Assembly (NCBI GenBank): GCA_043813585.1
Contig: JBDRKW010000002.1
Location: forward strand, 19,182-83,181
Direction of reading: 5' to 3'
From: Candidatus Kerfeldbacteria bacterium
GTDB lineage: Bacteria > Patescibacteriota > Patescibacteriia > UBA9570 > XYC2-FULL-38-9
Length of the DNA: 64,000 nt
In this document: in pieces, positions 7,944 to 62,160 of the stretch
Layout: every line of letters starts with the position of its first letter
Numbering within the stretch: position 1 is the stretch's first letter
Notes under the pieces: model-generated
Told to the model about the DNA's origin: nothing
The model's database searches: none
The model's input: only the letters and a program-made list of their open reading frames with translations
Position numbers and translations under genes: made by a program

Positions 7944-7985
7944 ACATGATTTATTTACTGTTTGTTTTATTCGGTCCGTCCATCA

Positions 7986-8043
7986 TAACCGAACAAAACC
8001 CGAATGTCCAGACATCCTGTGGATAACCGAACAAAACCCGAAT
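7986..8043 (-). promoter_or_regulatory. two identical 20-nt boxes (ATTCGGGTTTTGTTCGGTTA on the recA coding strand), 38 bp apart in the recA promoter; candidate SOS (LexA) operators
   Basis: Exact 20-mers at 7986-8005 and 8024-8043. The same box pair with the same 38-bp period occurs 35-92 nt upstream of lexA (32524-32581). The proximal box lies between the -35-like TGGACA and the -10 TATGAT. Confidence 0.6.
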
Positions 8044-8068
8044 ATTACAAAGTACAAACCCCACGTCC

Positions 8069-8779
8069 TCATGCATCCTCTTCTGGAGCCTCATATAAGA
8101 TATTCCGAATTTCTACGCGTTCAGAACTGCGTTTGGACCGGGTGGTTATGCGAAGCGAATTTAAACCTTCATGCAAATAGACATCCTCGATAAAACGGCC
8201 GTCCGGATCAACCGAAATGCCTTGGCCGTTGATCTCCACAATTGCTTCCGGTTCGGTTTTACCACGAATAGTGATCTTCCGGTCGGCCACAATCACATCC
8301 TCTGTCGGATACTCAATCACGAGCTCGGGCGGGCTTAAAAGCTGCACGATCTCCCAGGAAAAATAGATCACCAGGAGCAGCACGACAATCCCGGCAACCC
8401 CGAACCTCAACAGTCGCGGTATCAGAAGCGGTTTGCGCTGATGCGGCGTCGATCCCGTACCCACCGGCTTATGCCGCTTCGATTCCTGCTTGCGCTGCAC
8501 GTCCGGATGGAACGCGCGGATCTCCCTTTTGTAGTCCTCTTCGATCTTCTCCCACCGCACGCCAAGTTCTCGGCAATACAGCTTGAGATAATTGGTCACA
8601 TAGACCGGCGACGGAAGGTCGCTATACCGGCCGGACTCCAGCGCCTCCAGATACCGCTGCGGCACCTTAATCGCCCTCGCAATCTCTGTCATCACCAAGC
8701 CCTGTGACTGGCGCGCCACTCGAAGCTGTTCACCGACTGTTTGATGCTGCCGTACCGGCTGCTGTTTAAAATTCGACAT
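8069..8779 (-). CDS. RodZ-like cytoskeleton protein (XRE-type HTH, one TM, C-terminal beta domain)
   Basis: The track ORF begins at GTG 8866 inside ftsK. ATG at 8779 (MSNFKQQPVRQHQTVGEQLRVARQSQGLVMTEIARAIKVPQRYLEALESG) gives the HTH, followed by TM GVAGIVVLLLVIYF. Overlaps the ftsK 3' end by 14 nt. Confidence 0.6.
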   Translation of the reverse strand: MSNFKQQPVRQHQTVGEQLRVARQSQGLVMTEIARAIKVPQRYLEALESGRYSDLPSPVYVTNYLKLYCRELGVRWEKIEEDYKREIRAFHPDVQRKQESKRHKPVGTGSTPHQRKPLLIPRLLRFGVAGIVVLLLVIYFSWEIVQLLSPPELVIEYPTEDVIVADRKITIRGKTEPEAIVEINGQGISVDPDGRFIEDVYLHEGLNSLRITTRSKRSSERVEIRNILYEAPEEDA

Positions 8780-11126
8780 TATTGCGATCTTCAGGATCAA
8801 GATCCTCCTGCGACTCCTCATCAGAATACTCGTCTTCCGGCTCATCTGGCTCCTCCGGCTCTTCACCCGGCTCTCCGATCATCGATTCTCCCGCCGCCTC
8901 GTCCTGCACAAGAATTTCACGCGGCTTCGCTCCGTCTGCCGGGCCGATAAATCCTTCTTCTTCCAGGATATCCAGAATACGCGCTGCTCGCGCATACCCA
9001 ACCCGCAGCCGTCGCTGCAAGAGCGATGCGGACGCTTTGCCCGCCTGCAAAATCACCTCTTTGGCATCATCAAGTAATTCATCGCTGTCTTCAGCTCCAC
9101 CGCTCACGCCCGAGATGCCTCTTTTACCGGTATTAGATTCCGTTACATCGCTGTCATATTCCGGCTTCTCCCGATTCCGCAGATAATCCACGACAGCATC
9201 AATGTCCTTGCTTTCCAGATGCGCGCCCTGCAGACGCTTCGGCCTGGACAGGGTTGCATCAATAAACAGCATATCGCCGCGGCCAAGCAGCTTCTCCGCT
9301 CCGGAAAAATCCAGGATTGTGCGCGAATCCACCTGCGACGCCACGGAAAACGCAATGCGCGCCGGCATATTCGCCTTGATCAGGCCGGTAATGACGTTGA
9401 CCGACGGACGCTGCGTTGCCAGCACCAAGTGGATGCCGACCGCACGCGCCATCTGCGCCAGCCGCACAATCGCCGCTTCAACCGAATTTGCAGCAACCGA
9501 CATTAGATCTGCCAATTCATCAATCACGAACACAATATACGTCATGCGCTCGTCTTCATCGACTTTGCTGTTGTATTCATCAATGCTTCGCGCACCGGCC
9601 CGTTGCAGCATTTCATACCGCCGATCCATCTCCGCCACCGTCCATTTCAACGAATTCACTGTTTTTTCAATGTCAGTAATCACCGGCGTCAGCAGATACG
9701 GGATATCGTTATAGTTCGACAACTCCACGCGCTTTGGATCCACCAGGATAAACTTGAGGTCATCCGGAGAATTCTGGTACATGAGCCCGCAGATAACACT
9801 GTTGATACAAACCGACTTACCTGAACCGGTAGCACCCGCAATCAACAGATGCGGCATGCCTGATAAAGACGTGACAAACGGCTTGCCCGCAACATCTTTA
9901 CCTAAACACAGTGTGAGATTGTCTTTGCGTTTCTTGAATACTTTCGAAGTGAGGATCTGTCGCAGTGTTACTGTTGCAATCGCCTTGTTCGGCACTTCAA
10001 TGCCGACTAACGCCTTGCCAGGGATCGGCGCTTCAATCCTGATTGGAAATGCAGCCAGCGCCAACGAAATATCGTTATGCAATGTCGTGATCTGCGTAAG
10101 CTTTACACCCTCTTGCGGGGCCAACGTGTACTGCGACACCATCGGGCCGACATTTACTTCGCCCATCTCAACCGGAATACCGAAGCTCTCCAACGTCAAT
10201 CGAATTTTTTCCTTATTCTCCTCAATGTCGCCGCTGGTCGGCTTCTCATTGCGTTCCGATAGCAGGCTCAACGGTATTTCACTCCAGCCGCGCCGTTTAG
10301 ACCGCTTTGGAATAAACGACATCTGTTCCAGATCCTTGTCTGTCGCCTGCTCCTGCCCGGTATGCTCTACTTCTTTGGTGGAAAACGCCGGCTCTTCTTC
10401 CGGTTCGCCATCAACGCTCCCTTCTTCTGATTCATCGTCCTCATCTTCCTCGGCATCTTCTTTTGCTGCGCCGATCTTATACCCGTTCATACGCGCATGC
10501 AGCCGCGTCTTCAGCCAATTCCATACGCCGCCGAAAAAACCGAACTCGCGCACCCGCGTAATGAGCGCAGGTATCGACAGGCTCAACATTACAGAAACTG
10601 ATGCGATAAACAGGCCGAGCAACACGATAATCGCCACCCAGATGCCGGCGTATTTTATTAGCGGAATGGAAAACACGATTCCCAGGTAGCCGCCGCCTTT
10701 GCCGGCTTTAGCCGCTTCGGTGAAATCAACATACGGGATAAACAGGTGCAGAAGCGCCAGCCCGGACAACAGGAAAAACGCCAGTCCGATCCAGTTCCAC
10801 ATGCGGATTTCGTATTTATCGCCATTCAGGAACAGATACGCGAGCGCCGCAATGATAAACGGCACGATATACCGGCCCCAACCAAACACCCAGCCAAGGA
10901 TCTCGTCTACCCATACACCGAAATCGCCGGCCGCATTCACAAACGACAATAACGACACCGCTGAAACTGCGAATAAGAAAATAACGAGCAGTCCGCGCTG
11001 CGCACCGCCGTCATCTTCATCCCACGTATATTTCTTACGCTGCTGTTTTGGCTCCGCCTCTTCGTCCTTTGGTGGACGCCCGCGTTTCTTTGCAGGCTCT
11101 TGCTTTAAGGTCTTTCTCTTCGCCAT
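8766..11126 (-). CDS. ftsK: DNA translocase FtsK/SpoIIIE
   Basis: 786 aa. N-terminal TM helices, Walker A LLIAGATGSGKSV, gamma winged-helix (SLLQRRLRVGYARAARILDILEEEGFIGP), then an acidic tail. Confidence 0.95.
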   Translation of the reverse strand: MAKRKTLKQEPAKKRGRPPKDEEAEPKQQRKKYTWDEDDGGAQRGLLVIFLFAVSAVSLLSFVNAAGDFGVWVDEILGWVFGWGRYIVPFIIAALAYLFLNGDKYEIRMWNWIGLAFFLLSGLALLHLFIPYVDFTEAAKAGKGGGYLGIVFSIPLIKYAGIWVAIIVLLGLFIASVSVMLSLSIPALITRVREFGFFGGVWNWLKTRLHARMNGYKIGAAKEDAEEDEDDESEEGSVDGEPEEEPAFSTKEVEHTGQEQATDKDLEQMSFIPKRSKRRGWSEIPLSLLSERNEKPTSGDIEENKEKIRLTLESFGIPVEMGEVNVGPMVSQYTLAPQEGVKLTQITTLHNDISLALAAFPIRIEAPIPGKALVGIEVPNKAIATVTLRQILTSKVFKKRKDNLTLCLGKDVAGKPFVTSLSGMPHLLIAGATGSGKSVCINSVICGLMYQNSPDDLKFILVDPKRVELSNYNDIPYLLTPVITDIEKTVNSLKWTVAEMDRRYEMLQRAGARSIDEYNSKVDEDERMTYIVFVIDELADLMSVAANSVEAAIVRLAQMARAVGIHLVLATQRPSVNVITGLIKANMPARIAFSVASQVDSRTILDFSGAEKLLGRGDMLFIDATLSRPKRLQGAHLESKDIDAVVDYLRNREKPEYDSDVTESNTGKRGISGVSGGAEDSDELLDDAKEVILQAGKASASLLQRRLRVGYARAARILDILEEEGFIGPADGAKPREILVQDEAAGESMIGEPGEEPEEPDEPEDEYSDEESQEDLDPEDRNNVEF

Positions 11127-22180: not shown

Positions 22181-25100
22181 TTATTCCTGCTTAGATTTAT
22201 CGACTTTGATGATCCCTTCGTCTTCCGAAAGCTCGTTTGCCGTTTCCTTATTGTCTTCATGATCCCTGCTGACCTCTTCCGTCCTTGCCGCCACAGGAAA
22301 ACCGTCGTCATCAAGCAGCTCAACCTCGAGGCACAGGCCTTTCAGCTCGCGCATGAGGACGTTAAACGATTCAGGCACGTTGATATTTTCAATCTCTTCA
22401 CCTTTGATCGTTGCCTCGTACGCTTTCGCGCGGCCCGGCACATCGTCCGATTTGATCGTCAGCATTTCCTGCAGGGTATGCGCGGCGCCGTACGCTTCCA
22501 GCGCCCACACTTCCATTTCACCGAAACGCTGGCCGCCGAACTGCGCCTTGCCTCCGAGCGGCTGCTGCGTGACGAGCGAGTATGGACCGATCGAACGCTG
22601 GTGAATCTTGTCTTCCACCATATGGTTCAGCTTCAGCATGTAGGACACGCCGCACATGACCGGCTGGTCAAACACCACGCCGGTGCGGCCGTCATGAAGG
22701 GTAATCTTTCCGTTGCGCGGGAATCCGGCTTTTTCGAGCTCTTCGCGGATGGTCTCCGCAGGCACGCCGTCAAACACCGGAGACGCAACTTTGTATCCGA
22801 GCGCGTCGGCTGCCATGCCAAGGTGCGCTTCCAGCACCTGCCCCAGGTTCATGCGGGACACGACGCCAAGCGGGTTCAGCAGGATATCAACCGGACGGCC
22901 GTCTTCGAGATACGGCATGTCTTCCACCGGGATAACGCGGCTGATAACGCCCTTGTTTCCGTGGCGTCCGGCCATCTTGTCTCCCACCTGGATCTTGCGC
23001 AGCTGCGCAATCGACACCTGGATGGTGCGGGTCACGCCGGCCGGCAGCTTGTCGCCGTGCTCTTTGCTGAAATTCTTCACATCAACAACTTTGCCGTGTT
23101 CGCCATGCGACAGATAGAGGGATGAATCTTTTACATCTTTTGCCTTATCGCCAAAAATCGCACGGAGCAGTTTCTCTTCGGCTGACAATTCTGTTTCGCC
23201 TTTCGGGGTGATCTTGCCGACGAGAATGTCGCCGCTCGACACCTGCGCGCCGACGCGGATAACGCCGTTCTCGTCCAGGTTCTTCAGCTTCTCTTCAGAT
23301 ACGTTTGGTATGTCGCGCGTTACGACCTCGGGTCCGAGCTTCGTGTCGCGTATATCGACGGTGTAATCTTCAATATGGATGGAGGTGTACCGGTCCTGAT
23401 GCACCAACCGTTCAGAAATCAGCACGGCGTCCTCATAGTTGCCGCCTTCCCACGGCATGTAGGCCACCATAACGTTCTGGCCGAGCGCAAGTTCGCCCTG
23501 GTCTGTTGCCGCGCCGTCGGCGATCACGTCGCCTTTCTCCAGCTTCTGCCCCTTGTCCACAATCGGACGCTGGTTAATGCAGGTGGATGCGTTCGAACGG
23601 ACAAATCGCTTCATGCGGTATTCATGCGACTGCCCCTTTGTTTCGGAAATCACAACTTTGTCCGCATCGACGTGGGTAACCGTACCCGCTTCTTCAGTCA
23701 CAACCGCCTGTCCGGAATCTTTTGCGGCGCGGTATTCCACGCCCGTTCCGATCACCGGGGACTGCGGCACAATGCACGGGACCGCCTGGCGCTGCATGTT
23801 CGTTCCCATTAGGGCGCGAACCGCGTCGTCGTTTTCCAAAAACGGAATCAATGCCGTTGAAATGGATACGATCTGCTTCGGCGATACGTCCATGTAGTCA
23901 ATCGTATGTACCGGGCCGATAATCGGCTTCATGAATTGCCGCACCTCTGTCCGCTCTTCCAGGAAATATCCGTTTTCATCAAGCGGAGTTGTTGCGGCTG
24001 TGGTCGTGGTTTTTTCTTCCGTAAACGCGTCCAGATACACAACGTCATCCGTCACGCGCGGCTTCACCGGAACCGTTTCCAGTTTGCCGAGCTTCGCGAT
24101 ATCTTTTTCTGAAATCAGGTCGCCGGCCTTTACGACAACCTTGCCGTCAACCTCAATGTCCTCGCGCGCGATCTCGCCGGCCGCTTCCTTTGGCGCCGGA
24201 TCATGGATGACCTTGCGGAACGCCGTCTCGATAAAACCGAAATCATTAATGCGGCTGAATGATGCCAGGTGGCCGACCAAGCCGATATTAGGTCCTTCAG
24301 GCGTTGCAATCGGACAGATGCGTCCGTAGTGGGTGCGATGCACGTCGCGAACTTCAAATCCCGCGCGCTCGCGTGAGAGGCCGCCAGGGCCCATCGCCGA
24401 CAAACGGCGCTTATGCTCCAGCTCCGCCAGCGGATTGGTCTGGTCCATGAACTGTGACAGCTGTGATGACATAAAAAACTCTTTCACGGAACCGATCACC
24501 GGCCTCGCGTTAATCAGGTGGCCCGGCGTCAGCGTATCGACATCTTTTGTCGACATGCGATCCTTCACAATGCGCTCCATGCGCGACAGCCCGATGCGGA
24601 ACTTGTTCTGCACCAATTCGCCGACTGCGCGAACGCGGCGGTTGCCGAGGTGGTCAATATCATCCGGCGGTTCCTGCGTATTGTTCAGGCGGATAACCTC
24701 GCGCACAATCGCGACCAGGTCTTCGCACCGCAACACGCGCGTCTCCGGCGTGTTCGGGATGTCAAAACCGAAGCGCTTGTTGATCTTGTAGCGCCCGACG
24801 CGGCCAAAATCGTACCGGTCGAAGTTAAAAAACATAGCGTGGATCAAACTGCGCGCGTTATCAACCGTTGCCATGTCGCCCGGACGGATGCGCTTATAGA
24901 CCTCTTTCAAACCCTCGCCCTCTGACTTGGAGGTATCCTTTTCAATGGTAGCCGCGATGTACTGGTTATTCGGGTCAACATCAATATCCTTAAACAGCTC
25001 AACAATCTCTTCATCAGAACCGTATCCGAATGCGCGCAGCAGCGCCGTTACCGGAACCTTGCGCTTGCGATCAACCTTTACATAGATGACGTTGTCATGG

Positions 25101-25609
25101 TTCGTCTCGATTTCCAGCCATGCGCCCCGGTTAGGGATGATCTTCGCGCCGTAAAACACATTTCCTTTAATAAAATCCGAAGTGAAGAACACGCCGGCAG
25201 AACGGATCAGCTGGGATACGACAACGCGTTCAATGCCATTCACCACAAATGTTCCGCGGTCGGTCATCAACGGGAAGTCGCCCAAAAATACTTCCTGCTC
25301 CTTAATCTCATTCGTTCGCTTGTTTACCAGCTTGGTGTTTACGCGAAGCGCGGCTTCAAACGTTAAATTCTTGTCTTTTGCAGTTACCTCGTCAAATCGC
25401 GGTTCGTCCAGGTAGTAATCCATTAAATGGAGTTCCAGGTCGCGGCCGGTGAAGTCTTCGATTGGCGTGATTTCATCAAGCAGTTCTTTCAAACCATCCT
25501 TCATGAACCAGTCGTAAGACATCTTCTGTACTTCAATCAAGTCAGGAAGCTCCATTGCTTCATGGCTTGGGGCGAAGTACTTCCGATCTTTGCTCTGAGC
25601 TTTTCCCAT
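22181..25609 (-). CDS. rpoB: DNA-directed RNA polymerase beta subunit
   Basis: 1142 aa. Rifampicin cluster region (...[30 protein letters not shown]...) and C-terminal conserved blocks. 11 nt from rpoC. Confidence 0.98.
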   Translation of the reverse strand: [1142 protein letters not shown]

Positions 25610-25896
25610 AGGCCTATATAGAATTAGTGGCTATTAAAATAAAAAATCTCTGTTTCCCTGAGGGAAATAGAGTGTTATTTCTCGTAACTAATTGTTTTGA
25701 CGTTTATGGAGGATGGACACGTGTTTTTCCCTTTTTTTCGGGCGTTGTTGTGTGATTTCGTGGGAACAGTCTCAATCCTAAGTCTGGATACCAACGATCA
25801 CTTTACGAATAATCCGTGGACTTGTCAAGAGCCCAACAACTTTTTTGTCAAGATCGTTTTCCACACGGCATTTCGGTGCTAACCTTAGCAAAGAAC

Positions 25897-25925
25897 AAAA
25901 AAACCGCTTTTTGCAAGCGATTTTT
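25897..25925. terminator. weak bidirectional terminator between the Mur-ligase gene and the rpoB leader
   Basis: AAAAAAA-CGCTT-tttgc-AAGCG-ATTTTT. Confidence 0.45.
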
Positions 25926-26005
25926 CATGGAATCTTTTTCACTAAAGTTACCCACATTCTCCACAGTTTTGTGCACATGCCTAAAATAAGGTAAAAATTG
26001 ACCCC

Positions 26006-27802: not shown

Positions 27803-30688
27803 TTATTTAACCCATCCGGAAGCAACACGCACCGCTCCGGTGAACGTCACAAACGGATAGACGGTCTCTTTCAGCTTGGTTCCTTTCGGCGAATAGATGT
27901 TTACCACCGCAGGGGTGCCTCCGTTGCTTCCAATGATATTCCGGTCTGCCCGTTTTTGGAACAAGTCACCGCCTGCGATAGTGCCGCCGTTCGCATACCA
28001 GGAACCGATGCCGAAAAAGCCTGTTTGGTAATACGTCGGCGTTCCGTTGCCTCGATAGACCGACTGGACGAACGCAGTTCCATGTTCCGGTACTGACAAG
28101 ATCACATCCGGATCGCCAGGGTCGAAGCTAGCCCGCGCCACGCGCACGCCGCCGCGGAACGCACTGTCATACGCTGAATATTGAGCCAGTAGTTCAGTGG
28201 TACGGCTGGAATAAATCTGCACAGTCGGCCCGCCGCCCTCGCCGGCCGATACGACAATCTCGTCGCGGCCTTTGCCGTTCCAGTCCACGCCGGCCACAAA
28301 CGCTCCGCCGGTAAACGCCTCGTCCAGCGCGTTAAACTGGAAGAGCAGTGTGCCGTCCATCTTGAATACGCGCACCTGCGGCCCGCCTCCCGGACCCGGC
28401 GCCGTAATGATCTCATCCACACCATCATCGTCAACGTCTCCGGTAGCGACGCGCACCCCTCCGCGGAACCCAGCATTATATGCCAGGAATGACGATAACA
28501 GTTCCCCATCCGGCTCAAACACCCGCACCCACGGATCTCCGCCCCGATCCAGGCCTACCACGATCTCATCGCGCCGATCGCCGTCAACATTGCCGACTGC
28601 AACTTCCAACCCGTTCGTCGCTTCAACCGGGAACGCATACCATGAATAGAGGTTTGCTTTTTTCTTGTAGCTCCAGACGCTCACGAGCGGACTCCCTCCC
28701 GGGCCGGCAGCCATGACCACGTTCTCCCGGGGATAAAAACGTTTATTCTTTATCTTGGAACTTTTCTTGTTGCCCAGGTCGTCCTTTACTTTTACGCGAT
28801 ATCGGTATTTCACGCCGTTCTTCACTTTTGTGTCCGTATATTTTGACGTTGGGTGTGAAATAACCCCTTTCTTCTTCCATGAACACGAACTGCACCCGTA
28901 TTTCTTGCGGAAAACCTGGTATTTCTCCGCATGCTCTCCTTTTACTTTGTCCCAGTCCACTTTTATCCCGTTCGCGGTTCGCGACAGCTCCAGGTTGGTG
29001 GGTTTTGTGGTTTCCGTATCAATGACATATTCAAAACTCGCAGCTTCGGTGGAAGCGTTGCCGTCATTGTCTTTTGCTTTCACGCGAAGGTAATAGGAGA
29101 CCTCATTCCCCTCAATCGCCGACGGTTCATAATTCCGTTTCGTCTGGAACGTTCCTTTAGTCACCGGATCGGCATGCGCGTTCGTGCCGAAGTAGACATA
29201 ATATCCGGCAATCCCGTCGCCGTCATTTGCGGCTGACCACGTGAAATACGGCCTGGTATCAGCCGACCGCTCGCCGTCATTGAATGTTCTCGACTTTGAA
29301 GAGCTGTTGTACGCCGTAACGGTTGCCGGCGTCGTCGGGTTTTCCAGCGAACCGATGCCGTCCAGCGCTATATTCGCGTCTGCGCGGCCGCTGCCAAAAT
29401 TAGACCCGAGTCCTATGTCAACCGTATTTTTCGTTATCACTTCGCGCAGTTGGGAACGCGTCAGGCTGGATTCTTCAGAAAGAAGCAGCGCCGCTATCCC
29501 GGACACGATCGGCGTCGACATTGATGTGCCGGATTCATAATCATACGAAGCGGTAAACCCGTACGCAGCATTGATGTAAACAGTAGAGAATATCTGGTAT
29601 CCGGGCGCGGATAAATCCACACAGTTCGAACCGTAGTTGGAAAACGCTGCCGCTTCCATGGAGCTCTTGTGCGCCGCTACGCCAATGACGCTGTCATAGC
29701 ACGCAGGATAAAACGGCGTGGAATTAATATTGATTCCATCATTGCCTGCCGCTGCAACAACAAGCACCCCGTTATCCTTTGCATAGGTTATTGCGGCCTC
29801 CAGCAACGCGCTCTCTCCCGCACCGCCCAGGCTCATATTGATAATATCGGCGCCGTTGTCCACGGCATATTCAATGCCTTCAATAATGCCGCTGTCCAGG
29901 CCTCCTCCTTCATCATCCAGCACGCGGACGGCCATCAGCTTGGTCTTCCATGCAACGCCGGCAACGCCTTTGCCGTTATTGCCCACTGCACCGACAAGCC
30001 CGCCGACGTGCGTACCGTGCGTGACGCCGTTATCCGCGCCGTTCTGGCTGTCATTATCCACACCATCCGGCTGCGGATTTGGATTTTTATCATCATCCAC
30101 AAAATCATACCCGTTCACATCATCGATGTACCCGTTGCTGTCATCGTCAATGCCGTTGTCGGCAATTTCGTCGCCGTTCAACCATAGGTTATCTTCAATA
30201 TCGGGATGGTCGGTATCGATGCCGGAATCAATAATAGCGATAACCACACTGTACGTGCCGGTCTGATCTGCCCAGGCATCCTCTGATGAAATGCCTGCAT
30301 CTGCGTCAGAATGATGCCACTGGTTGGCGTAGTAGGTATCGTTGGGAGTGACGGTTGCATGCCTTTTGTAATTCAGTGCGGCTTCCTCGACCTCCGGATT
30401 GTCTTCCAGTTGTTCAAGCACCTCTTCAGCTGTCTTGTTTTCCGGAACACGGACGCGCTGCACGCGGTTCCGCAGTGATTGCTCGCCCCGACCTTCATCC
30501 TTCAACGTCACAAGAACAGTATCGTTTTCGTATTCCTTGCCGGCCAATGCCCGGTTTAAACGGTGGCCTTTTTCTGGCGATGCATCTACGCGGTCAGTGC
30601 AAATAAAAACAGCAGCGAGAACAACTGCCGCTGACGCGACAATGCCGCATCCCAGCGCCAATCGGGAACGAAATGCCGTATGTATCAT
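27803..30688 (-). CDS. large secreted subtilisin-like (S8) serine protease with FN3-like and C-terminal FG-GAP/VCBS-type repeats
   Basis: The track start is TTG 30724. ATG at 30688 gives a signal/anchor MIHTAFRSRLALGCGIVASAAVVLAAVFIC. Catalytic triad contexts DSGIDTDHPD, HGTHVGG, GTSMSTP. Repeats GDVDGDRRDEIVVG and GDVDDDGVDEIITAPGPGGGPQVRVF. Confidence 0.85.
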   Translation of the reverse strand: MIHTAFRSRLALGCGIVASAAVVLAAVFICTDRVDASPEKGHRLNRALAGKEYENDTVLVTLKDEGRGEQSLRNRVQRVRVPENKTAEEVLEQLEDNPEVEEAALNYKRHATVTPNDTYYANQWHHSDADAGISSEDAWADQTGTYSVVIAIIDSGIDTDHPDIEDNLWLNGDEIADNGIDDDSNGYIDDVNGYDFVDDDKNPNPQPDGVDNDSQNGADNGVTHGTHVGGLVGAVGNNGKGVAGVAWKTKLMAVRVLDDEGGGLDSGIIEGIEYAVDNGADIINMSLGGAGESALLEAAITYAKDNGVLVVAAAGNDGININSTPFYPACYDSVIGVAAHKSSMEAAAFSNYGSNCVDLSAPGYQIFSTVYINAAYGFTASYDYESGTSMSTPIVSGIAALLLSEESSLTRSQLREVITKNTVDIGLGSNFGSGRADANIALDGIGSLENPTTPATVTAYNSSSKSRTFNDGERSADTRPYFTWSAANDGDGIAGYYVYFGTNAHADPVTKGTFQTKRNYEPSAIEGNEVSYYLRVKAKDNDGNASTEAASFEYVIDTETTKPTNLELSRTANGIKVDWDKVKGEHAEKYQVFRKKYGCSSCSWKKKGVISHPTSKYTDTKVKNGVKYRYRVKVKDDLGNKKSSKIKNKRFYPRENVVMAAGPGGSPLVSVWSYKKKANLYSWYAFPVEATNGLEVAVGNVDGDRRDEIVVGLDRGGDPWVRVFEPDGELLSSFLAYNAGFRGGVRVATGDVDDDGVDEIITAPGPGGGPQVRVFKMDGTLLFQFNALDEAFTGGAFVAGVDWNGKGRDEIVVSAGEGGGPTVQIYSSRTTELLAQYSAYDSAFRGGVRVARASFDPGDPDVILSVPEHGTAFVQSVYRGNGTPTYYQTGFFGIGSWYANGGTIAGGDLFQKRADRNIIGSNGGTPAVVNIYSPKGTKLKETVYPFVTFTGAVRVASGWVK

Positions 30689-31639: not shown

Positions 31640-32344
31640 ATGAACTCACTGCAGCGCGCATACTTCCACCTGTTCCTGGGCATGGTGCTCAAGGATGGGA
31701 TGGACCTGGACGAGGAGGCCCTGAACGGCTTCTGTATGACGATCCGTAAGGACAACGGCGAGACGACCGAGGTGGTCGAGGAGCCGGAGCCCGAAGAGCC
31801 CGCGGCGGAGCCGGAGGAGCCCGCGGCGGACGAGGTGGTCGAGGAGACCCCGGAGGATGGCGAGCCAGAGGTGGTCGACGAGGTGGCCGAGGAACCCGCG
31901 CCCGAGCTGGATGCGGAGCCCGAGGCCGAGGTGGTCGACGAGGTGGCCGAGGAGCCCGTGGCGGAGCCCGAGCCCGAGAACGACGGCAGCGACGAGGTGG
32001 TCGAGGAGCCGGAGCCCGAAGAGCCCGCGGCGGACGAGACCACGCCCGAGGAGACCCCGGAGGACGACGGCAACAACGATGCCGATCCCGCCGAGGAGCC
32101 CGAGGGTGGCGACGAGGAGACCCCGGACGAGGAAGCCCCCGCCGAGGAGCCCGAGGGTGGCGACCCCGAGCCGGAGGACGACGGCAACGACGAGGAGTCC
32201 GAGGACAACGGAGAGCCCGAGGACGAGAGCGGCGAAGACGACCCCGATGACGGGGATGGTGATGACAACAACGGCGGGGACGACGATGACCCGGCCGGCG
32301 ACGAGGACGGTGGCGACGAGCCCAATGAGGACGACGTCACCTGA
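31640..32344 (+). CDS. hyper-acidic Glu/Asp/Pro-rich tandem-repeat protein with a short structured N-terminus
   Basis: AGAGGA RBS before ATG 31640. MNSLQRAYFHLFLGMVLKDGMDLDEEALNGFCMTIRKDNGETT, then about 190 aa of EVVDEVAEEPAPE.../EEPEPEEPAA repeats. About 60-nt DNA tandem duplications. GC about 68%. Confidence 0.55.
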   Translation: MNSLQRAYFHLFLGMVLKDGMDLDEEALNGFCMTIRKDNGETTEVVEEPEPEEPAAEPEEPAADEVVEETPEDGEPEVVDEVAEEPAPELDAEPEAEVVDEVAEEPVAEPEPENDGSDEVVEEPEPEEPAADETTPEETPEDDGNNDADPAEEPEGGDEETPDEEAPAEEPEGGDPEPEDDGNDEESEDNGEPEDESGEDDPDDGDGDDNNGGDDDDPAGDEDGGDEPNEDDVT

Positions 32345-32495
32345 TCGTGGGAGGTGCCCTTGCGCACCTCCCGCAACCTGAACGAAGAGTGGCACCAGAA
32401 TTGGGGAGGGAGATGCGTGAGCGCATGAGAATCACAGTTACAGCAAACCGCAGCGCGTCTCCCATCTCCCTTCATTTACAACTCCATTTAATAGA

Positions 32496-32522
32496 AAGCG
32501 GGATCATTCCCGCTTTTGTTTA
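32496..32522 (+). terminator. Rho-independent terminator about 150 nt downstream of the acidic-protein gene
   Basis: AGCGGGA-tcatt-CCCGCT followed by TTTGTTT. A perfect 9-bp hairpin GGGAGGTGC-ccttg-GCACCTCCC (32349-32371) lies right after the stop codon. Confidence 0.65.
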
Positions 32523-32523
32523 T

Positions 32524-32581
32524 ATTCGGGTTTTGTTCGGTTATCCACAGGTAGAATTGACATTCGGGTTTTGTTCGGGTA
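32524..32581 (+). promoter_or_regulatory. two 20-nt boxes (ATTCGGGTTTTGTTCGGTTA and ATTCGGGTTTTGTTCGGGTA), 38 bp apart, upstream of lexA; candidate SOS operators
   Basis: Boxes at 32524-32543 and 32562-32581. Identical (one mismatch) to the recA promoter boxes. The proximal box is preceded by -35-like TTGACA (32557-32562). Confidence 0.6.
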
Positions 32582-32615
32582 CCCTTACTCTACCCTATAA
32601 ATAAAGGCCAAACAT

Positions 32616-33236
32616 ATGACAAAAATCCTCCCGAGGAAGAAACAAAAAATCCTCCAGTATCTCAAGGACTATATCGACGATCGCGGGTACGCCCCGACGC
32701 TAAAAGAGATCGCCGATGAATTCAAACTCTCTTCTACCGCGACCGTTCATGAACATATAGGGTATCTGGAAGAACACGGTTTTATCAGACGCAATGATGG
32801 CGGGTTGGAAATAATGGACACACAACCGGAAGGGCAGGACGAATCGTTTACAGAAGGCAGCTCCGTTCAACTTCCAATCGCCGGACTCATTACAGCTGGT
32901 GTACCGATTGAAGCGGTCGAAGATAAAACCGAGATGCTCACCGTTCCAAAAGAACTCGCACGCCGTCCGGACTGCTACGTCCTCAAAGTCAAAGGCGATT
33001 CCATGATAGAAAGCTTTATCGACGATGGAGATTACGCCGTTATCCAAAAACAGGACTACGCAAGCGATGGCGATATCATTGTTGCGCTCCTCGATGATGG
33101 TTCGGCAACTCTAAAAGAGTATCATCGTGAGAAACAATACGTTCGCCTGCAACCGCGGAACAGAAATTACGAACCGCTTCGCGTGAAAAACGTCGTCATA
33201 CAGGGCAAAGTAGTGGGAATCATCAGAAAGTTCTAA
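32616..33236 (+). CDS. lexA: LexA repressor
   Basis: 206 aa. N-terminal wHTH (YAPTLKEIADEFKLSSTATVHEHIGYLEEHGFI). Ala-Gly cleavage site (PIAGLITAG). S24 peptidase with GDSM Ser and downstream catalytic Lys. Confidence 0.93.
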   Translation: MTKILPRKKQKILQYLKDYIDDRGYAPTLKEIADEFKLSSTATVHEHIGYLEEHGFIRRNDGGLEIMDTQPEGQDESFTEGSSVQLPIAGLITAGVPIEAVEDKTEMLTVPKELARRPDCYVLKVKGDSMIESFIDDGDYAVIQKQDYASDGDIIVALLDDGSATLKEYHREKQYVRLQPRNRNYEPLRVKNVVIQGKVVGIIRKF

Positions 33237-33246
33237 AACAAAATAT

Positions 33247-33543
33247 ATGTCATTCGCAAAAAATACACCCGTACAATATCTGCCAGGTGTTGGTTGGAGG
33301 ACCGCACAAGTCATGCACGACCTGGGCGTTCACACGGCCGGCCAGCTCAACTCCATGCCTGAACGCGTTCTGATCGAACTCTTCGGCCCCAGTATCCGCT
33401 CTGTTATCAGCAGCCTGCATCTCTCATCACCCCGAAAGAATAAACAATCCGTCACGCGCGCATCATCCATCAACGCCGGTTCAAAGAAAAAGAACCTCGC
33501 GTCGAGGCTCCGCATGGCAGCAACACTCATGACGCTTCTCTAA
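33247..33543 (+). pseudogene. 98-aa ORF equal to only the thumb/HhH segment of a Y-family DNA polymerase (DinB-like); likely a truncated remnant of an SOS polymerase gene
   Basis: YLPGVGWRTAQVMHDLGVHTAGQLNSMPERVLIELFGP aligns to the DinB block IPGVGKVSAAKLEAMGLRTCGDV...LLKRFG. No palm/fingers catalytic domain is encoded upstream. Confidence 0.4.
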
Positions 33544-47536: not shown

Positions 47537-48028
47537 TTATGATTCTCGTTGTTGTTGGTTGTGGAGCGCCGCTCCGGCTATCGCAATCGCTACCGCATCT
47601 GCCGCATCATCCGGCTTTGGAACCTCATCCAGCTTAAACAGTATTTGCACAATGCGCTGCACGTCTTTCTTGTCTGCATTTCCTGCGCCGGTGACGATCG
47701 ATTTCACTTCCACCGGCTTTACATCCCGTATCGGGCAGCCCTGCCGCTCCAAAATGTACAGGACGACCCCGCGCGCCTGCCCCACGGCAAACGCCGTCGT
47801 CACGTTCTTTGCAAAAAAGAGCTCCTCCACGCTCGCCAGCGCAATTTCCGGGTACTGCTTCAGAAGCGCTTCCAAATCATTCGCCAATATGTTCAGCCGC
47901 TGAGGCAGCGTCGCTTCCTGCGGCGTACGTATGACCCCGCATTCAACCAGCTCCTGAGCAGGCCCGGTAATATTCACTATTGCAAAACCCGTAATCTCAA
48001 TGCCCGGATCGATTCCCAATACCTGCAT
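47537..48028 (-). CDS. ruvC: crossover junction endodeoxyribonuclease RuvC
   Basis: 163 aa. MQVLGIDPGIEITGFAIV, VEELFFAKNVTTAFAVGQARGV, and acidic catalytic residues. Confidence 0.92.
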   Translation of the reverse strand: MQVLGIDPGIEITGFAIVNITGPAQELVECGVIRTPQEATLPQRLNILANDLEALLKQYPEIALASVEELFFAKNVTTAFAVGQARGVVLYILERQGCPIRDVKPVEVKSIVTGAGNADKKDVQRIVQILFKLDEVPKPDDAADAVAIAIAGAALHNQQQRES

Positions 48029-48036
48029 ACTGCGTA

Positions 48037-48762
48037 TTAAAGGTCAGCGTTAGTATAGACGCCGCTTACGTCATCGTCTTCCTCCAGAGTTTCTATGAGC
48101 TGCTCGCATTTTTCCGCATCCTCCTTCGGCGGAACAATCATGTTCTTCGTAATCCATTCCAGTCCGCTCGAAGCCAGCGTTAAACTTTCCTTATCCAACA
48201 TATCAACCAGCCCATTCAGCTCTTCGCGCGCACATAATATGGTCATTCCCTCTTCTTCACTGCGTATATCTTCGGCACCTGCATCAATGGCAGCCAGCTC
48301 TATGGCGTCCTTGTCCTTTCCTGCGATTTGCTCGCTTGCAATGCGCACAACCCCTTTCCGTTCAAACATGTACATCACGCTGCCGCTGCTGCCCAGCGTC
48401 CCGCCGTTCTTCGTAAGCGTGCTGCGGACGCTCGATACCGTCCGATTCGTATTATCGGTTACCCCTTCAATAATCATGGCGATGCCGCCCGGGCCGTACG
48501 CTTCATACACAACCTCTTCATACACCGCGCCCGGCACCTCGCCAGCGCCTTTAAGGATTGCTTTCTCAATACTATCTTTTGGCATGTTCGCGGCTTTGGC
48601 CTGGTCGATCGCGGTCCGCAGCGCGGGATTCATGTCCGGATCCTTCCCACCTTTTGCGGCAATGACTATATTCTTCGCCACTTTGGTAAAAACAGCGCCT
48701 TTTTTGGCGTCAGATACGGCTTTTTTCCTCTTAATTGTGGCCCATTTCGAATGTCCGGACAT
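48037..48762 (-). CDS. yebC: YebC/PmpR-family DNA-binding transcriptional regulator
   Basis: 241 aa. MSGHSKWATIKRKKAVSDAKKG...KVAKNIVIAAKGG. Confidence 0.9.
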   Translation of the reverse strand: MSGHSKWATIKRKKAVSDAKKGAVFTKVAKNIVIAAKGGKDPDMNPALRTAIDQAKAANMPKDSIEKAILKGAGEVPGAVYEEVVYEAYGPGGIAMIIEGVTDNTNRTVSSVRSTLTKNGGTLGSSGSVMYMFERKGVVRIASEQIAGKDKDAIELAAIDAGAEDIRSEEEGMTILCAREELNGLVDMLDKESLTLASSGLEWITKNMIVPPKEDAEKCEQLIETLEEDDDVSGVYTNADL

Positions 48763-48886
48763 TTTTTATGCAATCAAAAATATCGCATACAATCTACCGA
48801 ATTTTAGCCGAAAAGTCAACGCCCGGCGCTTGCTTGATTTGCCGTTTCAACGGTATCATACAGAAGTTAAGTTTTAATGAATCTCT

Positions 48887-60701: not shown

Positions 60702-62160
60702 ACGGAACCTCCGCGTCTACGAACGTGCAGATTTATATCCGCAATCTATCTCGTATTATTTTCCACTTTTTTATAGTTCTCCGGACGAACATCCCTATGT
60801 CGCAAACATCTGGGAAGTGGGGGCGTTCAAGGACGGTTATTTCTGGTGGGCGCGCGATGTAGACGAGTTGGAAAAACGGTTTCGGAAGTGGTTCGGCGTC
60901 TGGCTGGACGACCCAAAAGAACGAGCACGCCATTATAAAATGCATACGCAGGCAAGAAAAAAAATTCTTGAAGCCATTGTCTCGTTGAAGAAAAAAGATC
61001 TTACAACCGTACCGACAAAAGAGCTCCTGCATCAGTACTCGCTCCTCTATGGGCTTGCTTCGAAATTCATCCTATTTGCGGAATACACCGTTGATGTGTT
61101 TGACGATGTCTTTCATAAAATCTTTACCGAATATCTGGAATCAAACGCAAATAAGCCAATCGACTCTGCGGATCTTGCCGAGTTTATGAGGCCCGCAACC
61201 CTTTCAGCCAGTTCCGAATACAAAAAAGCGCTGTTGGAACGTTCACTGCAACCCAGCATCTTAGAAGATAATATACAAAAAACAGCAGAAAAATTCAGCT
61301 GGATCCGCATGGGATGGGACGGATCAAATGAAATAACGCAAAAGCAGGTTCGGGAAGAATTAATGGAGCTGTCTGATCTTCCGGCTGAAAAACGCGGGCA
61401 AGAACTCGAGAGTATTACAAACTATGGAGCCACGGTCGATAATAAACGCAAAGATCTTTGTACAGCATATTCCATTGCTCCCGATACGCTCTCCGGACAC
61501 TTTGACCTGCTGGACATGTTTAACGTGCTGCATGACAACCGCAAAGAGGTGCAGATGCGATGCAATCAAATCATCTACCGTGTCTTGCGTGAAATTCCAA
61601 ACCGCTTCGATGTAACCTATGAAGAAATTCTCCTCTATTTCCCGGAAGAACTGCTAGCCCTACTTGAAGAAGGTGCGCCGGTTAACACAAGTGAGATTAA
61701 TAAACGCAAAACCGGCCTGACAATGCAGATCCAATCCGGAAAAGTGCAAATCACCTATGGCGCCGATGCAAGAAAAGTACTTCAAGATGAAGTGTTGTCT
61801 GTAATACAAAGTGATGAAGCCACGGAAACCGAAGGAATTCCGGCAAACGCCGGCACTGCGAAAGGCATTGCGTTCGTAACAAAATCAGCAAAGGATGCAA
61901 ATGCACATCTTGAACAAGGAGAAATCCTCATAACAACAATGACCACCGTCGACTACCTGCCGGCCATGAAGCGGGCGGCTGCAATTGTGACAGACGACGG
62001 GGGCATGACCTGCCATGCCGCAGTGGTTAGCAGGGAGCTGGGTACGCCGAGTATCGTCGGCACAAAAAACGCAACGCAGCTGTTTACATCCGGCGACCGA
62101 GTTTATGTAGACGCAGGAATAGGAATTATTAAAAAAATAAAGGGTGCCAATCTTGATTAG
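60694..62160 (+). CDS. protein with a C-terminal PEP-utilising-enzyme mobile (swivel phospho-His) domain
   Basis: GTG start overlapping the GDPD stop. C-terminal AAIVTDDGGMTCHAAVVSRELGTPSIVG matches the PEP-utilisers GG.TSHAAI.ARE.G.P.VVG motif. N-terminal 370 aa unassigned. Confidence 0.6.
   Translation: MNKRNLRVYERADLYPQSISYYFPLFYSSPDEHPYVANIWEVGAFKDGYFWWARDVDELEKRFRKWFGVWLDDPKERARHYKMHTQARKKILEAIVSLKKKDLTTVPTKELLHQYSLLYGLASKFILFAEYTVDVFDDVFHKIFTEYLESNANKPIDSADLAEFMRPATLSASSEYKKALLERSLQPSILEDNIQKTAEKFSWIRMGWDGSNEITQKQVREELMELSDLPAEKRGQELESITNYGATVDNKRKDLCTAYSIAPDTLSGHFDLLDMFNVLHDNRKEVQMRCNQIIYRVLREIPNRFDVTYEEILLYFPEELLALLEEGAPVNTSEINKRKTGLTMQIQSGKVQITYGADARKVLQDEVLSVIQSDEATETEGIPANAGTAKGIAFVTKSAKDANAHLEQGEILITTMTTVDYLPAMKRAAAIVTDDGGMTCHAAVVSRELGTPSIVGTKNATQLFTSGDRVYVDAGIGIIKKIKGANLD

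Follow-up and report, generated by a model that had tools for sequence, protein, structure and literature searches.

Predicted LexA operators and an intervening DnaA-box-like element at the lexA and recA promoters of a Candidatus Kerfeldbacteria bacterium

In Escherichia coli, lexA and other SOS promoters carry tandem SOS boxes, which are palindromes of the form CTGT-N8-ACAG placed side by side, and the autoregulation of lexA by tandem operators is textbook knowledge. Regulation in the Patescibacteria, which possess very few transcription factors and cannot be grown in isolation, is approached mainly through conserved cis-elements. In the Alphaproteobacteria the LexA box is a direct repeat, GTTC-N7-GTTC (PMC8565304). 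The SOS motif of the Patescibacteria is also already known, and the study that described the SOS response of this phylum (Sanchez-Osuna, Barbe and Erill, Environ Microbiol 2017, PMID 28618189) is cited in PMC7739468 among the direct-repeat LexA lineages.

The replication initiator DnaA has a documented place next to LexA. Its perfect, highest-affinity box in E. coli, Vibrio, Pseudomonas and Bacillus is TTATCCACA (PMC4285127). [quoted passage not shown] 2018, PMC6015884; review PMC8203912). In Bacillus subtilis DnaA regulates transcription in response to replication stress (Goranov et al. 2005, as described in PMC8203912). For the candidate phyla radiation the literature yielded DnaA-box-like repeats at a Peregrinibacteria origin (PMC4736985) and nothing more, and within a coverage that did not extend to the 2017 Patescibacteria SOS study, no paper was found that describes a DnaA box at the promoter of lexA or recA.

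The region considered here lies in a stretch of Candidatus Kerfeldbacteria DNA that was analysed over its whole length of 64 kb, referred to below as the window. What goes beyond the known pattern, and appears worth following up, is a DnaA-box-like element that is conserved within a clade and has a LexA operator pressed against it (Table 1). In the reading that is preferred, with a probability of about 0.7, LexA would repress these promoters by occlusion and a second input, probably DnaA, would act through a site gated by the distal LexA box.

Table 1. Coordinates of the regulatory features and genes in the window
Feature	Position	Strand	Remark
Terminator-like hairpin, GAAAGCGGGA-TCAT-TCCCGCTTTT with T-rich tail	32494-32517	+	Left edge of lexA regulatory region
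Distal LexA box of lexA promoter, TTCGGGTTTTGTTCGG	32525-32540	+	Direct repeat TTCGG-N6-TTCGG; 0-bp gap to 9-mer
DnaA-box-like TTATCCACA plus GG, lexA promoter	32541-32551	+	Centre ~47 bp upstream of predicted start
-35 hexamer of lexA promoter, TTGACA	32557-32562	+	T-GAC invariant in relatives' alignment
Proximal LexA box of lexA promoter, TTCGGGTTTTGTTCGG	32563-32578	+	Fills 17-bp spacer, -35 to -10
Predicted weak -10 of lexA, TACCCT	32580-32585	+	3/6 consensus; TA...T kept in relatives
lexA, 206 aa, winged-HTH and S24 peptidase	32616-33236	+	
98-aa ORF, 10 bp downstream of lexA	33247-33543	+	Position kept in relatives
Distal LexA box of recA promoter, TTCGGGTTTTGTTCGG	8042-8027	-	
DnaA-box-like TTATCCACA plus GG, recA promoter	8026-8016	-	
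-35 hexamer of recA promoter, TGGACA	8010-8005	-	
Proximal LexA box of recA promoter, TTCGGGTTTTGTTCGG	8004-7989	-	Within 17-bp spacer
-10 hexamer of recA promoter, TATGAT	7987-7982	-	
Possible third LexA site, recA leader, CCGAATAAAACAAAC	7960-7974	-	Degenerate, inverted, one good half-site; weak
recA, 352 aa	6885-7943	-	
yebC-ruvC promoter, TTGACT, t + TTCGGCTAAAATTCGG, TAGATT	48791-48819	-	Box 48812-48797; without TTATCCACA
yebC and ruvC	48037-48762 (yebC), 47537-48028 (ruvC)	-	Downstream of third box promoter

The genes behind the two main promoters had been named lexA and recA in the original prediction, and both names were borne out. The lexA product contains the LexA_DNA_bind (PF01726, E = 4.6e-16) and Peptidase_S24 (PF00717, E = 2e-29) domains and aligns over its full length to solved LexA structures, the best being that of Thermotoga maritima (3k2z, E = 3e-30). 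The cleavage site T93-A94-G95 is aligned with the AG of the T. maritima protein, and the catalytic dyad is present as Ser129 (in GDSM) and Lys167 (in TLKEY). With its domains and cleavage site in place, this ORF is a bona fide LexA, and its nearest relatives by protein similarity come from Kerfeldbacteria or Patescibacteria MAGs. The recA product is 100% identical to a protein annotated as 'recombinase RecA [Candidatus Kerfeldbacteria bacterium]'.

The same prediction had placed two boxes with a 38-bp period at both lexA and recA, each with the -35 hexamer abutting the proximal box, and this is what the window contains. The 16-mer TTCGGGTTTTGTTCGG is found at exactly four sites, which form the two pairs, and no further copy appears when up to three mismatches are allowed; the lexA pair lies 38-91 bp upstream of the ORF. 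The generic form TTCGG-N6-TTCGG occurs six times against 0.30 expected, a count reached in none of 100 shuffles. Five of the six belong to the lexA, recA and yebC-ruvC promoter regions, where three occupy the 17-bp spacer itself, and the sixth, at 60881 inside a gene, is probably there by chance. At each of the three promoters the stretch between the -35 and the -10 is taken up by one box. The inner spacer of the box is GTTTTG in all four lexA and recA boxes and CTAAAA in the yebC box, so LexA does not appear to constrain it.

These boxes stand at lexA itself and at other repair genes of the same genome (recA, yebC-ruvC), and they are kept at the orthologous lexA promoter in all nine close relatives with upstream DNA. 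The repeats can be taken with high confidence to be LexA operators that would repress by promoter occlusion. That they might instead serve some other regulator is suggested by their form, which is that of a direct repeat and not of the palindrome classical for LexA, but direct-repeat LexA motifs are already documented and the genes that carry the repeats, namely lexA, recA, yebC-ruvC and, in the related locus L142, a Y-family polymerase, form the canonical SOS gene set, which makes this alternative very improbable. As far as the description in PMC7739468 allows a comparison, the published Patescibacteria regulon concerns the same phylum and likewise has direct-repeat LexA operators in the lexA promoter. 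The alphaproteobacterial box is similar in being a direct repeat with an 11-bp period (TTC-N8-TTC), and the reading (A/G)TTCGGGTTTTGTTCGG of the present boxes makes their proximal half literally GTTC. Unlike that box, the half-site is TTCGG, extending 3' of TTC, and the lineage is unrelated. As in E. coli lexA, the repressor gene would be autoregulated through two operators of which one overlaps the core promoter, whereas the boxes here are direct repeats 38 bp apart that enclose both the -35 hexamer and a further conserved site.

The three promoters differ in quality. At recA the arrangement TGGACA-17-TATGAT matches 10 of 12 consensus positions and at yebC, where the LexA box again occupies the spacer, TTGACT-17-TAGATT matches nine of 12; both pass a promoter scan based on the consensus. 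The lexA arrangement TTGACA-17-TACCCT fails it, as its -10 matches only three of six positions, and the transcription start of lexA is a predicted one. The sequence TATAAA at 32596-32601 was considered as the main lexA -10 and rejected, as GTTCGG, the hexamer found 17 bp before it, does not resemble a -35 and the relatives keep TA...T right after the proximal box. That the lexA -10 is weak had been noted before and stands; the tight autoregulation deduced from it finds no support, and dependence on an activator is at least as good a fit to a weak -10 combined with a conserved site upstream. The hairpin upstream is terminator-like and would end the preceding transcription unit. No RNA element was found in the leader at Rfam E <= 1 (32300-32700). 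A place equivalent to the degenerate half-box in the recA leader is occupied in the lexA leader of locus L002 (about 2975-2990) by a full inverted LexA box, CCGAATAATAACCGAA, and some promoters may have a third operator downstream of the -10.

Between the two boxes there are 22 nt, which had earlier been passed over as mere spacer. They hold TTATCCACA, a perfect DnaA-box 9-mer that follows the distal box with no base between them and is separated from the -35 hexamer by 7 nt. At both promoters (32541-32549 and 8026-8018) the match is to a consensus that derives from E. coli, Vibrio, Pseudomonas and Bacillus and may not be that of the host. The conserved third element, gTTATCCACAgG, is identical to the highest-affinity DnaA box. 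Three perfect copies of TTATCCACA occur in the window against 0.31 expected, two of them in the lexA and recA promoters and the third at 30054, inside an S8 peptidase gene. Copies with one mismatch number 22 against 10.9 expected, 17 of the 22 on the + strand, and in the 64-kb window none of these lies upstream of a -35/-10 pair. A general promoter element was considered and set aside for this window, as the 9-mer lies upstream of a -35 only at the two SOS promoters; the yebC-ruvC promoter does not contain it. Elsewhere in the window (25857-25965, + strand) three near-consensus DnaA-box-like 9-mers, TTTTCCACA, TTACCCACA and TTCTCCACA, are gathered within ~110 bp of a 395-bp intergenic region upstream of a large - strand ORF (22181-25609).

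The conservation of the 9-mer was followed in 14 promoters that had been picked by similarity of their LexA or RecA proteins and not by the 9-mer. It is invariant throughout, with the single exception of TTATTCACA in locus L176, which differs at position 5, presumably the degenerate position of the stricter DnaA-box consensus TTATNCACA. Next to the 9-mer, the preceding G and the second of the following bases are largely or partly conserved, and further out there is almost no information. Upstream of lexA the composite of TTATCCACA, 7-10 nt, TTGAC, a LexA box and a -10 is found in loci L001-L006, L008, L009 and L034, and thus in all nine relatives with readable upstream DNA, that of L007 being cut off; in L005 a small ORF intervenes between the composite promoter and lexA. 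Within 450 bp upstream of lexA, TTATNCACA is present in 10 of 80 LexA loci, all of which are Patescibacteria or closely related by their LexA (L034 bears no label beyond 'bacterium'), and in none of ~55 loci from other phyla. At lexA in the Microgenomates, Woesebacteria, Berkelbacteria and Curtissbacteria the 9-mer is absent, and the -35 and the LexA box are kept.

LexA boxes without the 9-mer are also found, at yebC-ruvC in the window and at genes downstream of lexA in L008, L009 and L133/L142, the one in L142 encoding a 382-aa Y-family polymerase. The binding of LexA would therefore be independent of the 9-mer, which would represent a separate input, and only part of the LexA regulon carries the 9-mer. 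Across relatives the 9-mer is better conserved than the distal LexA box, and on such grounds it is very likely to be a selected protein-binding site.

Metagenome contigs were scanned for the composite with the pattern TTATCCACANG-N5-9-TKGAC-N0-3-TTCGG, which is conditioned on the 9-mer and so informs on the breadth of the arrangement and not on its frequency. The scan returned 95 matches where 40-90 would be expected by chance (19.5 specified bases). A second half-site at exactly N6, expected by chance in ~3%, followed by a TATAAT-like -10, is present in 48 of them, and the other 47, which do not have the second half-site, were excluded as chance matches, a number that fits the 40-90 estimate. 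The majority of the 48 composites lie upstream of lexA genes, the products of which are 40-77% identical to the LexA of the window, and recA is downstream at six loci. The composite also precedes three unrelated C5 cytosine DNA methyltransferases (L106, L119, L159) and two genes of the 23S-rRNA-IVP four-helix-bundle type (L129/L163, L132/L153). DNA methylation may thus be damage-inducible in these Patescibacteria. In L083 the composite promoter is followed by a 507-aa ORF that consists of a complete LexA (DNA-binding and S24 domains) fused to an N6/N4 DNA methyltransferase domain, which could also be an artefact of a frameshift or of read-through.

The lexA and recA modules are identical at 52 of 57 positions (32522-32578 against the reverse complement of 7989-8045), and all five differences fall within the 7 nt between TTATCCACAGG, the stretch conserved between the boxes of both promoters, and the -35 hexamer. 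The module had been held to be a selected one, conserved between the two promoters. Selection is supported by the recurrence of the -35 hexamer, the box within the spacer and the -10 at lexA in nine relatives, at recA in three of eight and at yebC-ruvC here; conservation between lexA and recA holds within this window, but the recA copy is lineage-specific. Of eight loci retrieved by RecA similarity, L176 has one box, with TTATTCACA replacing TTATCCACA, and L181 and L183 have two boxes. The other five have neither module nor box, and in these the gene upstream ends 14-33 bp before recA, compared with 125 bp in the window. Such a short distance from the upstream HTH_25 gene indicates that in most relatives recA is probably co-transcribed with it and not controlled by LexA. 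The order ftsK, an HTH_25/Glucodextran_B (RodZ-like) gene (8069-8866, - strand, in the window), recA, small membrane proteins and groEL is kept in L176-L183. In L103 (lexA) and L160 (recA), presumably conspecific, the two promoters share the -35 TTGACG and GGGTACTGTA after the proximal box.

The common GTTTTG spacer, the details shared by L103 and L160 and the lack of a recA module in most relatives suggest that the recA module was copied from the lexA cassette, or the reverse, and was kept by selection on its functional parts. The locus would then be an example of a regulatory cassette copied between promoters inside one genome. A copy of recent date could by itself account for the likeness, in which case the sequence between the boxes, TTATCCACA included, would be a functionless hitch-hiker. 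The identity of 52 of 57 positions is in keeping with such an event, as is the GTTTTG common to all four boxes although the yebC CTAAAA shows that this spacer is free to vary, and the 14-33 bp before recA in relatives without the module, set against 125 bp here, suggests an insertion. The 9-mer, however, is invariant where LexA has diverged to 40-77% identity and the neighbouring 7-10 nt have been randomised, and it persists without a distal box in 31 of 45 promoters. A hitch-hiking 9-mer is consequently highly improbable, and a selected site is the reading that is retained.

The arrangement of the distal box was compared across the 45 non-redundant composites. It is a direct repeat at a gap of 0 from the 9-mer in nine, is inverted at a gap of 1 in five and is missing in 31, and at no other distance from the 9-mer was a distal box found in this set. 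The layout of two boxes 38 bp apart, which had been described for lexA and recA, is therefore true of this genome and not general: in close relatives the period is 38 or 39 bp, so that 38 bp is not special, and it is the contact of the box with the 9-mer that is conserved. The distance from the 9-mer to the -35 varies by contrast from 7 to 10 nt in the same composites, which is loose for a factor that contacts the polymerase on one face of the helix. In the recA promoter of L183 (about 1090-1170) the 9-mer is 19 nt from the -35, against the usual 7-10, and the distal box still abuts the 9-mer. The additional spacing in L183 is close to one helical turn and could hint at a dependence on the face of the helix.

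A box that, where present, always lies 0-1 bp from the 9-mer may gate access to it by competition, and this placement suggests that the target of the distal operator is the protein bound at the 9-mer. The proposal of gating is a tentative one that falls somewhat short of even odds. The distal box may alternatively serve in co-repression. In our view it does not function mainly as one half of a phased operator pair with the proximal box.

As to the protein that binds the 9-mer, the chances that it is DnaA appear about even. The element is exactly the highest-affinity DnaA-box 9-mer, its sole variant affects the position that is degenerate in TTATNCACA, and no other factor is known with this consensus. 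These points speak against the rival view, in which TTATCCACA is a real regulatory site for a protein other than DnaA, such as a SOS co-regulator specific to the clade or a contacting subunit of the polymerase. This view gains from the restriction of the element to a single clade of the Patescibacteria, and there to some of the LexA-box promoters, and from the single copy of the box, which is unusual for DnaA-dependent regulation, where clusters are often used. A cluster upstream of a mraZ-like gene in L142 also makes other factors that recognise GTGGATAA-like repeats conceivable. Taken together, a binder other than DnaA is unlikely, though it deserves more weight than the other alternatives considered above.

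The cluster in L142 (4385-4440) comprises the DnaA-box-like sequences TTATCCACT, TTATCCCCACA and TTATCCACA, lies ~700 bp from the lexA promoter and is directly upstream of an ORF with a MraZ-like N-terminus. MraZ requires arrays of repeats, and it was rejected as the binder of the 9-mer because the SOS promoters have a single site. A tblastn search with an approximate C-terminus of E. coli DnaA gave no dnaA match in the window or in the fetched loci, and oriC does not lie in these sequences either. Further points against the preferred reading, in which DnaA is the probable second input, are that the recA module is missing in five of eight relatives and that the 9-mer is absent from yebC-ruvC and from the lexA promoters of other Patescibacteria classes.

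It is possible to sketch how such a promoter might work. The proximal operator fills the spacer between the -35 and -10, and by its position LexA bound there would exclude RNA polymerase, as in the classical SOS mechanism. Upon DNA damage, RecA filaments would trigger the self-cleavage of LexA and the promoters would open; the Ala-Gly site and the Ser/Lys dyad required for this proposal are present. If the 9-mer binds DnaA, the expression of lexA and recA would be coupled to replication status, and LexA on the distal box would compete with DnaA for the 9-mer. The direction of the DnaA effect can be argued both ways. Activation is favoured by the location of the site upstream of the -35 and by the weak lexA -10 in this genome, and for repression there is the precedent of E. 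coli uvrB, recN and dinJ.

These E. coli promoters are the closest parallel, in that DnaA-type and LexA boxes are combined in one promoter region. They belong to peripheral SOS genes, however, and contain several degenerate DnaA boxes through which DnaA represses, whereas the sequence evidence here points to a single perfect box, conserved in the clade, upstream of the -35 of the master genes lexA and recA. In B. subtilis, to the extent that PMC8203912 describes it, DnaA boxes in promoters likewise link expression to replication status, in parallel to RecA/LexA; that response is independent of RecA and outside the SOS regulon, while the putative site here is inside the SOS master promoters. 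The composite thus gives rise to the hypothesis of DnaA-LexA crosstalk at the top of the SOS hierarchy, which has so far been shown only for peripheral E. coli SOS genes. If this is true, the SOS switch would combine a damage signal, received by way of RecA and LexA, with a signal of replication status that comes from DnaA.

A broader proposal would extend this to the whole clade. DnaA would be wired into lexA and recA via a single perfect box, a LexA operator would have evolved flush with it at least twice, in opposite orientations, to control the access of DnaA, and damage and replication signals would be integrated on a portable cassette of ~60 bp that is also found at DNA methyltransferase genes. 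Considered as a whole, this proposal is possible but doubtful.

A number of smaller observations concern the genes around the composite. Upstream of the lexA terminator there is a 234-aa ORF (31640-32344, + strand) of low complexity that is extremely rich in Asp, Glu and Pro, with no Pfam match and no homologue in the fetched relatives. In L005 (2594-2992) and L128 the composite drives a conserved ORF of ~112-132 aa with a hydrophobic segment at its N-terminus, for which Pfam gives no match; lexA follows directly behind it in L005. The 98-aa ORF behind lexA in the window is probably part of the lexA operon. It shows a weak match, just below the Pfam cut-off, to the HhH thumb of Y-family polymerases (PF21999), and at least 10 relatives have a homologue with 34-61% identity directly 3' of lexA. 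In L142, which is more distant, the homologous stretch sits within the 382-aa Y-family polymerase, a full-length protein whose gene is preceded by a LexA box of its own, and the 98-aa ORF looks like a retained mini-gene derived from dinB.
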